A DNA stretch of 45,288 nucleotides, from sequence record NC_073323.1, one strand, 5' to 3'. Shown in pieces: positions 4,580-42,117 of the stretch. The position numbers and the translations under genes are program-made. Under the pieces are notes generated by a model that saw nothing but the letters and a program-made list of their open reading frames with translations, was not told where the DNA came from and ran no database searches. The stretch is from Escherichia phage vB_EcoS-phiEc3. How positions within the stretch are numbered: position 1 is the stretch's first letter; every line of letters begins with the position of its first letter.

Positions 4580-4608
4580 ATAGTACCCTATTATATTGGG
4601 GTGTGCAA
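4580..4608 (-). promoter_or_regulatory. Sigma70-like promoter TTGCAC-17-TACTAT (conserved element copy)
   Basis: -35 at 4603-4608, -10 at 4580-4585 on minus strand; 33-bp core repeated near-identically at 13949-13977 and 37708-37736. Confidence 0.5.
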
Positions 4609-4674
4609 ACTATTTATTTACTTATTCCAGTTATTCCGCTCAATTGTAAATGTTGGAATAAACTATTCGAATAG

Positions 4675-4703
4675 TTGACTTTTCACTAAAAATATGATAA
4701 GCT
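4675..4703 (+). promoter_or_regulatory. Sigma70-like promoter TTGACT-17-TGnTAAGCT (extended -10)
   Basis: Conserved with 37399-37427; 17-nt spacer, TG at -15/-14. Confidence 0.5.
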
Positions 4704-4707
4704 CCAC

Positions 4708-4817
4708 CTGAGCTTGTGAAGTATGAACAAGCGACCGCGGCGCTGGCAGGTAACGGAGCGGGACGTAAGTCCTGAGTGTAGTTACGCTGACGCGTTCGGA
4801 AGGGCCATACTCTATTG
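4708..4817 (+). ncRNA. Candidate structured leader RNA, copy 1
   Basis: Paralogous to 37431-37541; three helices supported by compensatory changes; no conserved ORF. Confidence 0.5.
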
Positions 4818-4927: not shown

Positions 4928-5314
4928 ATGAATCTTAAAGCAACCGTCGTAGCAGGAGCATGTTTCATCATCCTGGCTTACACACACGGCATTTATCAGT
5001 ACCGCAGCGGCTGGCACGAAGGCCGCGCTAATCTCGTTTCGCAGCAACAGCAGAAAGCACAGGCCGAGTTAGCGAAGAAAACACAACGGCAGCAGCAAGA
5101 TGAATCAAAGGCCGCCGCCGCTGACAACGAAGGCAAGACGAAATCAGAGGTGATCACCCGTGAAGTCGTTAAGTACATTAAAACTCCTGGTCGCAGCGTG
5201 TGCACTTTCGACCCTGAGCGCGTGCAGCTCAAGTCCCGCGCCGTCGCAAACGCCAATTCCATCCCCGGATACGACGATGATGCAGCCGCCGTGCAAGCTG
5301 GCACCGCCGAGTAG
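4928..5314 (+). CDS. Rz-like i-spanin
   Basis: N-terminal TM helix, Gln/Ala/Lys-rich coiled coil, RBS GAGAAAGGGG; contains embedded out-of-frame lipoprotein gene. Confidence 0.6.
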   Translation: MNLKATVVAGACFIILAYTHGIYQYRSGWHEGRANLVSQQQQKAQAELAKKTQRQQQDESKAAAADNEGKTKSEVITREVVKYIKTPGRSVCTFDPERVQLKSRAVANANSIPGYDDDAAAVQAGTAE

Positions 5315-5423
5315 CGACGCTGACGAGGATTTAGCTATCGACGTTCAGAACGCTGAATGCGTACGGCAGCTGCGGCTGAAAGTGTTCATGTTGCAGGATT
5401 ACGTGAGGAATATTCTGGAATAG
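5160..5423 (+). CDS. Rz1-like o-spanin (lipoprotein), overlapping Rz in another frame
   Basis: GTG start after AGAGGTGA; signal peptide with lipobox LSAC, Pro-rich mature region. Confidence 0.5.
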   Translation: MKSLSTLKLLVAACALSTLSACSSSPAPSQTPIPSPDTTMMQPPCKLAPPSSDADEDLAIDVQNAECVRQLRLKVFMLQDYVRNILE

Positions 5424-39181: not shown

Positions 39182-39359
39182 AAACGAGCATTTGATTAAA
39201 GTTACCCCGGTATGGTCGGCGTGGGTTATCGCCCCCGACGGAAAGCACGTACCGAAATTTGTGTTCACTGATGAGAAAGTTGCGCGTGAGTGGCTTCGTG
39301 CAGGCAAGAAAGGTGAACGCGGCGTCATGAAGGTTGGGTTAGTAGGAGACGTAGTATGA
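39171..39359 (+). CDS. Hypothetical early protein
   Basis: Track ORF from GTG 39162; ATG at 39171. Confidence 0.45.
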   Translation: MNTKNEHLIKVTPVWSAWVIAPDGKHVPKFVFTDEKVAREWLRAGKKGERGVMKVGLVGDVV

Positions 39360-39796
39360 GTAACAAAAACGAAGTATTCGAGTACCTGATTGACCAGCTA
39401 CGGCAGCAGGTAAATAACAACCGGTGCGAAGACCTGGCGCATGAGGTGCAGTCACTTAAGAATCAGTTACGCGATGCGTCGGCGCAGATTAAGGAGTTGC
39501 AGAGTGAGTTACAGCATCAGATTGACCTGGCGGCGGGTGTGTATAGATGGTCTACCGCACATTTCGACGAGAAAGGTAAAGTCTTCAAGGTCGAGCGTGG
39601 GATTAAGACTGAGCAATCTGGTTGCCGTAAAGAAGATACTCATAGCCAAGGAACCGGAGTATCCGGGCGAGTTCGGGAAGGCGGTGTTAGGGTGACAGGA
39701 TGTCAGTCGGAGTGCAGTCATTTATGGCATTACACCGACGACCACTTAGTACATTGCGTTTTGTGTGGGTTAAAAAGGAGCGACGAAGCGCTATGA
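39356..39796 (+). CDS. Hypothetical protein, N-terminal coiled coil, C-terminal Cys/His cluster
   Basis: ATGA coupling to next gene supports full length; alternative frame 39441-39695 rejected. Confidence 0.5.
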   Translation: MSNKNEVFEYLIDQLRQQVNNNRCEDLAHEVQSLKNQLRDASAQIKELQSELQHQIDLAAGVYRWSTAHFDEKGKVFKVERGIKTEQSGCRKEDTHSQGTGVSGRVREGGVRVTGCQSECSHLWHYTDDHLVHCVLCGLKRSDEAL

Positions 39797-39996
39797 CCAG
39801 CATCTTATTTATCTGGGTATTGTCGGCGGGCCAGATGCAACTGGCGGCAACAGAAACGTTTTACTCAATGGAGGCGTGCCAGTCAGCGGCACGCGCCGCA
39901 GAGAACGCGCACTTCCTGTTTCAGGGGGACAAGCCCATCGATTCAGAGGTACGCGCTATCTGCTCACCTAAGCGACTTGGTAAACAGGAGAAATAA
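39793..39996 (+). CDS. Small secreted/membrane protein, 67 aa
   Basis: AAGGAG RBS; hydrophobic N-terminus TSILFIWVLSAG. Confidence 0.5.
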   Translation: MTSILFIWVLSAGQMQLAATETFYSMEACQSAARAAENAHFLFQGDKPIDSEVRAICSPKRLGKQEK

Positions 39997-39997
39997 C

Positions 39998-40192
39998 ATG
40001 GTACAGAGATACGAGTTAGAGTTGTTTCATCAGAAAGGTGGCTCGGTAAACCCGTGCGATGATGGTGGATACATAGAGTACGAAGATTACGCGAAACTCG
40101 AAGCCGAGTTACAGAAATACAAGGACCAGTTTCCTGATTACGTTGAGTGCGCGAACTGTGGGTCAGTTACACATGTGGAAGGGGTGGAGTGA
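39998..40192 (+). CDS. Hypothetical early protein, 64 aa
   Basis: RBS CAGGAG then ATG at 39998. Confidence 0.45.
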   Translation: MVQRYELELFHQKGGSVNPCDDGGYIEYEDYAKLEAELQKYKDQFPDYVECANCGSVTHVEGVE

Positions 40193-40485
40193 TGTCTCTG
40201 GCAACTGACATCCTGAAACGAAGCGGCCTTGCGCCGCTGTCACCGAGAGCGAACACCCGAATATACAAGCGCCGCCGTAACGCGCTGTACCCCGAGATAC
40301 AAGAACGGCGTAAAGCTATCCGCGCCTGTGGATTCCAGAACGGGAAGGCCGTTAATCTAGGTGAGTTCAAAACACAGGAACGTGCTGCAATCGCTAATCG
40401 GCTATTTAATTACTGGAAATCTCTTGGTTATGATGATATTCCGACGAAACCGCAGAGACGACAATACATCTGGAGACATAAATGA
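40192..40485 (+). CDS. Hypothetical basic protein, 97 aa
   Basis: ATG overlapping upstream stop. Confidence 0.45.
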   Translation: MSLATDILKRSGLAPLSPRANTRIYKRRRNALYPEIQERRKAIRACGFQNGKAVNLGEFKTQERAAIANRLFNYWKSLGYDDIPTKPQRRQYIWRHK

Positions 40486-40922
40486 CTACTATCGCGTTCG
40501 ACGGAAAGACAATGGCCTGCGACACCCGTGTTGTGTGCGGGAGTAACTGTTACAACACAGACACAAAGATATACGAGAACGATTTTGCTGTTATCGGGGT
40601 GGCTGGTGATGCGGGGGTGGGGACTATGCTTATCGATTGCCCTGATATTCTTCAGGCAAAGCACTATGACTTCGATTTCGAAGCCCTTGTGTTCGTGAAA
40701 GACACAGAAAAGGTGTATAAAGTCGCTTTTTATAAATCGTGGGATTGCGCCCTTAGTTCGGTTATTCCGGTTGCGGATGGCTTTGCAGCTGTTGGTTCCG
40801 GCGCACCTTATGCACTGGCGGCTATGGAATGCGGATATTCGGCACATGGTGGCGTAGCCGTTGCGTCGAAGTTCGACACCAACACCGGCGGCAAGATTAT
40901 TACCAAACAACTATTAGGATAA
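40482..40922 (+). CDS. HslV-like Ntn-hydrolase (proteasome beta-type peptidase)
   Basis: N-terminal MTTIAF (Thr nucleophile at position 2), [17 protein letters not shown] and [12 protein letters not shown] alignable to HslV. Confidence 0.6.
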   Translation: [146 protein letters not shown]

Positions 40923-40981
40923 TTCCTAAGCGTGGTATCCTCCAGTTACTGCATACTTAATACGCACCTGGAGGATTCATC

Positions 40982-41290
40982 TTGGATAAATTTACTGAAA
41001 CAGTGACAGGCTGGCTTCTCGCTGCCGCACTCGCCGGAGGGGTCATCGGACTACGACAACATAAGTCCGTTATTTCTGGACCCATCGACGGCTTATTCTT
41101 TATTGTAACCGGCTTCGCTTGCGCCGTATTCGGTGCGCCTCTCGCTGCCCAATGGTTCGGCATTACCGGGGAGCGTGAAATCGCTGGTCTGGGTTTCATC
41201 ATCGCTATTCTCTGGATGCCTATCTATTCCCGCCTCTCCGGTATCGTCGCCGGGGAATACATCTCACGTCGAGGAGGCCCGGATGAATGA
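40982..41290 (+). CDS. Holin (three predicted TM helices)
   Basis: TTG start 7 nt after GGAGGA; precedes endolysin. Confidence 0.55.
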   Translation: MDKFTETVTGWLLAAALAGGVIGLRQHKSVISGPIDGLFFIVTGFACAVFGAPLAAQWFGITGEREIAGLGFIIAILWMPIYSRLSGIVAGEYISRRGGPDE

Positions 41291-41555
41291 GTTATTCTGG
41301 TTCGGCGGTATGCTGGCAATCGGGGGTACATCGCTGTTTAATGTGTACCATCCCAGCGTTGATGACGGGCTGTTCGGCCGGGTGCTCTATATCCTGACTG
41401 CTATCGTCTGCGCCGCCGGATGTATCCACCTGTTACAGGGCAGCGTGTCACCAACGCTGCCTGAGACATTAATCACATTAGTTGCGCTGCGCCAGATTCG
41501 TCAGGCGTGGCTGTCATACGGAGGACATAAGCGTGTCTCGAAATATTTCAGATAA
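41283..41555 (+). CDS. Holin-like / antiholin membrane protein (two TM helices)
   Basis: ATG after GGAGG; between holin and endolysin. Confidence 0.5.
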   Translation: MNELFWFGGMLAIGGTSLFNVYHPSVDDGLFGRVLYILTAIVCAAGCIHLLQGSVSPTLPETLITLVALRQIRQAWLSYGGHKRVSKYFR

Positions 41556-42021
41556 TGGACTGCATTTCACCGCCGCGTTCGAGGGGTTCCGTGGTACTGC
41601 ATATCGTGCTACGCCAAATGAGAAGTACCTGACTATTGGGTACGGTCATTATGGGCCAGACGTAACGCCAGGCAAGACCATCACCCCCGGACAAGGCCTC
41701 CTGTTACTGAACCGTGATATGGCTAAGGCTGTAGCTGCTGTTGACGCAGCAGCACACCATTCATTGACACAGGCACAGTTCGACGCTGTTTGCGACCTGG
41801 TCTACAACGCAGGTGCTGGTGTGATTGCTGCTACTACCGGCACGGGTAAGGCACTGCGTTCTGGTGATATTGCAACGCTGCGGGCTAAGCTGGCGCTGTT
41901 CATCAACCAGAACGGCAAACCGATACTTGGACTGCGTCGTCGTACCGCCGGTCGTCTGGCGCTGTTCGACGGTAAACCGTGGCAGGAGGCTGAGGCTATC
42001 GGGCGCGCGGTGAAAGGTTGA
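41533..42021 (+). CDS. Endolysin, lysozyme-like (GH24-type)
   Basis: Motif GLHFTAAFEGFRGTAYRATPNEKYLTIGYGHYG; GTG start 8 nt after GGAGG. Confidence 0.7.
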   Translation: MSRNISDNGLHFTAAFEGFRGTAYRATPNEKYLTIGYGHYGPDVTPGKTITPGQGLLLLNRDMAKAVAAVDAAAHHSLTQAQFDAVCDLVYNAGAGVIAATTGTGKALRSGDIATLRAKLALFINQNGKPILGLRRRTAGRLALFDGKPWQEAEAIGRAVKG

Positions 42022-42086
42022 CACATAAGACTAATCCGACGATACTTAAATCACCTCCTGCTCCATCCCTCTGCTCTCCAGTTTTA

Positions 42087-42117
42087 TCCCGGCCCTGACC
42101 CAGCCGGGATTTTTTTT
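42087..42117 (+). terminator. Strong intrinsic terminator (TCCCGGC-loop-GCCGGGA then TTTTTTT)
   Basis: 7-bp GC stem and 7-T run after lysis cassette. Confidence 0.75.

Follow-up and report, generated by a model that had tools for sequence, protein, structure and literature searches.

In the complete genome of Escherichia phage vB_EcoS-phiEc3 (NC_073323.1; the whole analysed stretch of 45,288 nt is called the window here), the gene preceding the holin and endolysin genes encodes a small protein with the fold of the proteasome/HslV-type Ntn hydrolases. This fold, together with membership in the viral PPH family, is assigned with hardly any doubt; the protein is a PPH member and not an HslV orthologue. 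The gene is the following open reading frame (ORF):

40482..40922, plus strand: gene of a PPH-type proteasome homolog, 146 amino acids (aa), supported by ORF, profile and model evidence

An earlier note, made from the letters of the sequence, had described here a standalone HslV-like peptidase immediately upstream of the lysis cassette. The ORF was borne out: the ATG at 40482 is the first possible start past the upstream stop, and the product begins with MTTIAF. The description itself stood in part, since the protein is related to HslV and is standalone in the phage genome, but it belongs to PPH and is not HslV proper.

When the single sequence was used, the Pfam model PF00227 (Proteasome) scored 19.4 bits against a cutoff of 22.4 bits (two close relatives, P0031 and P0054, carry a precomputed match to this model), and phmmer against the PDB gave E values of at least 0.18 for HslV. 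Single-sequence and shallow-profile searches of the PDB reached E values of about 0.01 to 1 only. Their top match, a segment of 4-carboxymuconolactone decarboxylase, was spurious and was superseded by a family profile of 102 representatives, which are 30-42% identical to the query. With E values between 2e-11 and 1e-10 and over essentially the full length, this profile matched PDB sequences of HslV, the Betaproteobacteria proteasome homolog (BPH) and the proteasome beta subunits of archaea and eukaryotes. The protein matched PHROG 1040, "peptidase HslV family", with residues 1-143 at E=2e-34. In the HMMER alignments, the blocks K..G.AG and A.GSG..YA.AA line up with Thermotoga maritima HslV and with proteasome beta subunits, and in this way both blocks of the alignment made by eye in the earlier note were reproduced. 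Judged by these scores, the similarity to the proteasome/HslV superfamily lies far above chance.

An exhaustive homolog search of 1.84 billion representative proteins yielded 1,482 representative clusters (50% identity) at E<=1e-3. The best 150 representatives are mostly about 135-165 aa long, and 134 of the 136 among them that have 130-170 aa start with Met or Val followed by Thr or Ser. A homolog was found in 300 phage records at E<1e-5, and the nearest GenBank protein, from phage G AB-2017, is 96.6% identical.

The AlphaFold2 model, computed from the family alignment, has a mean predicted local distance difference test score (pLDDT) of 91 and a predicted template modelling score (pTM) of 0.86. 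It shows the alpha-beta-beta-alpha Ntn sandwich, in which H1, H3 and H4 are present and H2 is absent. According to DSSP, helices occur only at residues 44-58 (44-52/54-58), 108-116 and 121-131, and the last strand (139-143) is close to the chain end at 146, leaving no C-terminal S12/H5. Foldseek against the PDB placed BPH (5OVS/5OVT) first with a TMq of 0.74-0.76, followed by catalytic proteasome beta subunits (beta5) and HslV, all with a probability of 1.00; 103 PDB entries matched at E<=1e-3, and the 50 best were exclusively BPH, proteasome subunits or HslV. The fold is common to about 39 viral structure representatives. PHROG 1040, the family profile, the model and Foldseek agree on the proteasome-type Ntn fold which had been proposed from the sequence. 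The most distinctive segment of the model is:

40638..40682, plus strand: acidic linker (codons 53-67), which stands where HslV and BPH have helix H2 and their pore loop

The linker region has the lowest pLDDT in the model (73-84), with no helix past residue 58. It is the most variable part of the protein and varies among close relatives. Conservation was assessed in 135 representatives with at most 50% mutual identity: the linker segment contains 22% Asp and Glu, compared to 10.7% elsewhere, and is net negative in 80% of them. The most conserved part of the family is the H3/H4 surface with the pattern A.GSG..YA.AAM..G..A..AV..A..FD..TGG.

The active-site positions were confirmed through hidden Markov model alignment to beta5 and HslV. 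In the same 135 representatives they are occupied as follows:

T2, equivalent of Thr1: T in 132, S in 3
D14, equivalent of Asp17: D in 132, E in 3
K29, equivalent of Lys33: conserved in all 135
G42, equivalent of Gly47: conserved in 134
G105 and G107, equivalents of Gly128 and Gly130: each conserved in all 135
S106, equivalent of Ser129: S in 122, T in 8
D132, equivalent of Asp166: conserved in 128
T135, equivalent of Ser169: T in 94, S in 27

According to this alignment, the complete proteasome active-site constellation is kept, including the conserved catalytic Thr-Lys pair (T2 and K29) on which the earlier note had made its proposal depend. Thr stands directly after Met1 and there is no propeptide; removal of Met ahead of Thr corresponds to the established specificity of methionine aminopeptidase. 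Pairwise comparisons among the Kagunavirus-type alleles gave ratios of nonsynonymous to synonymous substitution rates (dN/dS) of 0.03-0.21 at dS values of 0.5-1.5; dS against the Jerseyvirus allele was saturated, so that only the pairs within the Kagunavirus type are informative. These ratios indicate purifying selection on the peptidase gene wherever it is retained.

Two observations concern variation between alleles. The database variant P0025, a relative with 90% identity, starts with MMTIAF, and the canonical Thr2 is shifted or gone; this could be a sequencing variant, a second-Met start or an inactive allele. In relatives that are 82-97% identical, the variation is block-like and mosaic and falls at codons 34-37, 46-61 and 116-130 (approximately 40581-40592, 40617-40664 and 40827-40871), with alternative block versions including GILLVKDDSILVPK and MYLGNTATRAITVAAQ. 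The mosaic blocks suggest that alleles have recombined at the H1/linker and H3-H4 loop surfaces.

The PPH family dates from 2021, when bioinformatic work established it as the first proteasome-like family that is truly viral. Its members, encoded by Caudovirales and prophages, have about 140 residues, no propeptide, the catalytic triad plus Gly47, and lack H2 and S12/H5 (PMC8665760). The protein described here has 146 aa, a Met-Thr start, Thr1/Asp17/Lys33/Gly47 equivalents, and a core of H1/H3/H4 and S1-S11 without H2 or S12/H5, and it is encoded by a tailed phage; we found no family-level difference between it and PPH. As a counterpart to clustering with the published PPH reference (WP_042125023.1 / OC.1434257), there is the strong match to PHROG 1040.

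With HslV (ClpQ) the protein shares the superfamily, the fold, the catalytic residues, a Thr exposed by Met removal and a compact subunit without the long C-terminal elements that 20S beta subunits have. However, it is about 30 residues shorter, is only about 20% identical in the structural alignment, and lacks H2, Arg86/Arg89/Lys90 and an adjacent hslU gene. In HslV, these three residues lie at the end of H2 and form part of the pore lining; activity depends on them, and HslU binding remodels them (PMC5777263). Since the cutoffs of the HslV equivalog models TIGR03692 / NF003964 were widely missed (15.0 bits vs 157.75 and 14.3 vs 137), and since H2 and the basic pore cluster are absent, the protein is not HslV proper.

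BPH, the best structural match, is likewise without propeptide and partner unfoldase and has an acidic segment at the position of the pore loop. It differs in being a cellular protein of about 200 residues with H1 and H2 and a long, ordered acidic pore loop, which forms tetradecamers. The features that define BPH membership (about 200 aa, H1-H4 and a long acidic loop after H2) were not found in the 146-aa protein. BPH itself has an acidic pore loop, has not kept the HslU-interface residues and appears to have no unfoldase as partner (PMC5777263). Similarity to the catalytic beta subunits of the 20S proteasome, such as beta5, comprises a full-length profile match (E~4e-11) and the active site including the equivalents of Ser129, Asp166 and Ser169; in contrast to them, the phage protein lacks a propeptide, an alpha-ring partner, H2 and H5 and is about 60 residues shorter.

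In GenBank, relatives are labelled "peptidase HslV family", "HslV family peptidase", "NTN-hydrolase superfamily protein", "protease" or "ATP-dependent protease", and the Shashou record cites an HHpred match to Haemophilus influenzae HslV with 100% probability. The novelty implied by the earlier note did not hold: with a family described in 2021, an own PHROG and near-identical named proteins in GenBank, the identification is already known. New are the accessory status of the gene in Kagunavirus, its apparent deletion scar and cassette exchange (both below), and the acidic linker.

More distant proteins were also seen. The homolog of Vibrio phage 1.193.O (4001-4801) has 266 aa and a C-terminal extension and resembles the "RPC" relatives of PPH. 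The jumbo Salmonella phages JN03/SPFM19 and rV5-like phages carry distant "HslV family" genes, which match in the GSG/H3-H4 half only.

The window comprises the complete genome of a Kagunavirus-type E. coli siphophage (Guernseyvirinae), beginning at the large terminase gene; the close relative vB_Eco_K-01 shows 91.9% DNA identity over 39800-42100. The flanking upstream ORF and the holin are shared by 115 Kagunavirus-type records, and the same 115 were found with the portal gene. The peptidase gene is covered in 31 of these 115 records (about 30%), and tblastn gave approximately 35 matches outside Salmonella phages, consistent with 31 carriers. Among the phages without the gene are the type phages K1G, K1H, K1ind1/2 and Golestan. 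In K1G and fFiEco03 the same genes flank the junction, and its alignment revealed an exact gap of about 425 nt. In the gene-less genomes the end of the upstream ORF is followed by AAACCGTTATTAGGATAATTCC, which matches the last approximately 17 nt of the peptidase gene and its stop codon in the window (AAACAACTATTAGGATAATTCC). The gene occupies the corresponding place in the sister genus Jerseyvirus, so that the gap is most simply read as the deletion scar of an ancestral gene. The peptidase gene is accessory and dispensable, most Kagunaviruses having lost it by clean deletion.

The gene also seems to move. The Jerseyvirus Salmonella phage VT223 harbours a Kagunavirus-type allele (2543-2983) with 89.7% aa identity, whereas other Jerseyviruses reach about 61%. 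At the DNA level the similarity extends no further than the peptidase gene and about 40 nt on each side. As far as can be read from the DNA, this allele is evidence of cassette exchange between the genera.

We scanned all ORFs of at least 180 aa in the complete genome and found no HslU-like or other AAA+ unfoldase, in agreement with what had been noted before for the window; the only ATPases were TerL, an SNF2 helicase and a DnaB-type primase-helicase. The annotation of vB_Eco_K-01 agrees in having no HslU-like ATPase. Among the ORFs of the head module, in which scaffold and major capsid protein are present, no canonical prohead protease was recognised, and the PADLOC defence models gave no match for the 146-aa protein.

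The immediate surroundings of the gene contain the following features:

40192..40485, plus strand: 97-aa ORF of unknown function (phrog_9632), the upstream neighbour
40472..40475, plus strand: Shine-Dalgarno sequence GGAG, 6 nt ahead of the ATG of the peptidase gene (sequence inspection)
40934..40977, plus strand: conserved RNA hairpin in the spacer behind the gene, minimum free energy -22.5 kcal/mol, z=-2.59
40982-41290, plus strand: holin with TTG start
41283-41555, plus strand: second holin (the holins are matched by PHROG 2359 and 2508)
~41533-42021, plus strand: lysozyme-type endolysin (Pfam Phage_lysozyme, E=8e-27)

The ATG of the peptidase gene overlaps the TGA of the upstream ORF (ATGA, 40482-40485). 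Such overlaps are typical of translationally coupled phage genes, and the arrangement suggests translational coupling with the upstream ORF. As a conserved partner the 97-aa ORF was rejected, since it persists in genomes without the peptidase gene; a conserved partner gene in general was rejected as well, the neighbours being different in Xp10, Medea1 and the Vibrio phage. The peptidase gene is the last of about 20 small plus-strand ORFs in a run starting at a divergent control region beside the replication genes. One of the ORFs upstream (39356-39796, plus strand; phrog_6094, unknown function) also encodes 146 aa; its N-terminal half is coiled-coil-like, and it has weak, sub-threshold matches to scaffold, TPR and MukB-like JetC profiles. 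In a consensus scan for promoters and terminators at 37.5-42.3 kb, sites were no commoner than in shuffled sequence and none was found between the peptidase gene and the holin, so that the scan gives no basis for placing a transcription-unit boundary.

The position immediately upstream of the lysis cassette was confirmed: a spacer of 59 nt (40923-40981) separates the peptidase gene from the first holin, which is followed by the second holin and the endolysin. The gene precedes lysis genes in both Kagunavirus and Jerseyvirus, across approximately 62% protein identity, and this adjacency is a lineage-specific synteny within Guernseyvirinae only. In Xp10, the homolog 50L has small ORFs and HNH genes as neighbours. 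Five genes further downstream, on the same strand, comes p7, one of the early genes that are read by the host RNA polymerase (PMC6624301). The homolog of Pseudomonas phage Medea1 lies among small nin-region-like ORFs ahead of the terminase, and that of Vibrio phage 1.193.O among early-type genes. Because natural deletions keep the holins and distant homologs stand in unrelated early-type contexts, a functional tie to lysis, which the earlier note had implied, is not supported.

The holin leader of 59 nt, including the hairpin (GGUAUCCUCCAG...CUGGAGGAUUC) and the holin Shine-Dalgarno sequence GGAGG in its 3' arm, is 100% identical in K1G and fFiEco03, both without the peptidase gene. The hairpin is part of the lysis cassette and not of the peptidase gene. 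At the equivalent spot a "terminator" is annotated in records of relatives, for example Shelanagig. Since the hairpin has no clear U-tract, it may gate the translation of the holin rather than terminate transcription, or it may do both. Concerning the other lysis genes, we observed a spanin pair between the head-morphogenesis and scaffold genes, consisting of an Rz-like protein with an N-terminal transmembrane segment (4928-5314, plus strand) and, overlapping it, an Rz1-like lipoprotein whose lipobox reads LSAC (~5280-5423, plus strand). The lysis cassette is split, because on the circular map the spanins are about 8 kb away from the holin and endolysin genes.

What could be the function of this protein? 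On balance we favour, with reasonable but not high confidence, a standalone, unfoldase-independent peptidase similar to BPH, with a non-essential role directed at the host. Host methionine aminopeptidase would remove Met1 and expose Thr as nucleophile and general base, making the enzyme active without autoprocessing. The protein would assemble with itself into a ring or double ring, probably via the conserved H3/H4 surface, which mediates the ring-ring contacts in proteasomes (PMC8665760). Because the basic cluster of H2 is missing and an acidic linker is in its place, it would probably act without HslU, as proposed for BPH. The equivalents of the S1 pocket, V40 (for residue 45), A44 (for residue 49) and Y31 (for residue 35), are mostly hydrophobic, so that substrates with a hydrophobic P1 residue may be preferred. 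In the cytoplasm the peptidase may cleave peptides, unfolded proteins or specific host proteins and serve takeover or fitness; its role would be neither in lysis nor in capsid maturation.

Several points weigh against this picture. The full-text literature on phage HslV-like and PPH proteins yielded no functional, biochemical or genetic work. E. coli and Salmonella both encode HslU, so that use of this or another host AAA+ unfoldase is conceivable, and the loss of H2 might prevent ring formation. In two genera, whose versions of the protein are about 62% identical, the gene has kept its place beside the holin genes; a non-essential influence that modulates lysis would be one way to account for this, although we disfavour it. 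Finally, even BPH, the nearest relative with a solved structure, showed no peptidase activity in standard assays, though it binds epoxomicin (PMC5777263).

The availability of HslU in the host leads to the question of whether the protein is an HslU-dependent phage HslV, whose rings dock on host HslU or another AAA+ unfoldase and redirect ATP-dependent degradation for the benefit of the phage. Proteobacteria typically encode HslUV, and the hosts of Guernseyvirinae, Xp10 and the homolog-carrying Vibrio and Pseudomonas phages are Proteobacteria; the homology to HslV and the lack of an own unfoldase fit this explanation, and some GenBank records say "ATP-dependent protease". This label, however, is transferred from HslV, the equivalog cutoffs were missed, H2 with Arg86/Arg89/Lys90 is absent and the replacing segment is acidic. 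In addition, BPH as closest structural match has neither conserved HslU-interface residues nor an unfoldase partner (PMC5777263), and we regard dependence on HslU as unlikely. It is still less probable that the protein does not act as a hydrolase in vivo but as a sequence-specific peptide ligase or transpeptidase similar to connectase, or as a non-catalytic binder or decoy of host HslU/HslV. Connectase is a proteasome homolog which is capable of ligation and can be monomeric after losing H1/H2 (PMC8665760); PPH has lost a helix too, and hydrolysis by BPH was undetectable in vitro (PMC5777263). The near-invariant catalytic residues speak against the decoy, the ligase is at odds with the lack of connectase's signature two-helix insertion between S3 and S4 in PPH (PMC8665760), and both have to face the fact that conservation within the protein is highest in H3/H4, the surface for ring-ring contacts in proteasomes.

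The location of the gene gives rise to two further explanations. As a modulator of lysis timing, the peptidase would process or degrade a holin, an antiholin, an endolysin or a host factor, in line with its place, which is 59 nt ahead of the Kagunavirus holin and, in Jerseyvirus, likewise before the lysis genes despite only about 62% protein identity. We give this very little credit: about 70% of the Kagunavirus records lack the gene and keep the same holin, the leader being unchanged in K1G and fFiEco03; in VT223 another ORF intervenes before the holins; curators have annotated a terminator that would separate the gene from the lysis genes in Shelanagig; and the homologs in Xp10, Medea1 and Vibrio phage 1.193.O are not beside lysis genes. 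A protease for capsid or scaffold maturation, filling the role of the undetected prohead protease, is hardly credible at all. It could be invoked on the grounds that no prohead protease family was detected in the head-module ORFs and that an actinophage match near the genome start (4597-4812 of a 59-kb record) is annotated as "protease", but the gene is about 10 kb away from the head module on the circular map, is absent in most Kagunaviruses with the same head genes and resides in early-type regions in other phages. Moreover, no Pfam, PHROG or fold match to HK97 gp4-like or ClpP/S49-like prohead proteases was obtained, and scaffold-bearing phages without a protease, such as P22 and SPP1, are common.

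Returning to the unfoldase-independent, host-directed peptidase, one may go further and imagine a self-sufficient viral "mini-proteasome", in which the acidic, fast-varying H1/linker surface selects specific host proteins, such as defence or stress-response factors, for early destruction, and in which the absence of H2 might entail a new quaternary structure. This is a speculation to which we assign a low, though not negligible, probability. If true, it would explain why a mobile, dispensable cassette of the host-range type is under strong purifying selection.

Although its identification is not new, this PPH gene matters in several respects. For annotation, the labels "ATP-dependent protease" and "HslV" are over-specific, and "PPH-family proteasome homolog (putative Thr peptidase)" describes the protein more accurately. 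Further, a clean indel of about 425 nt separates carriers of the gene from non-carriers among close E. coli phages; this natural experiment makes studies on fitness, host range and substrates straightforward. Last, the family is very large, with 1,482 clusters at 50% identity, and its function is a tractable question.

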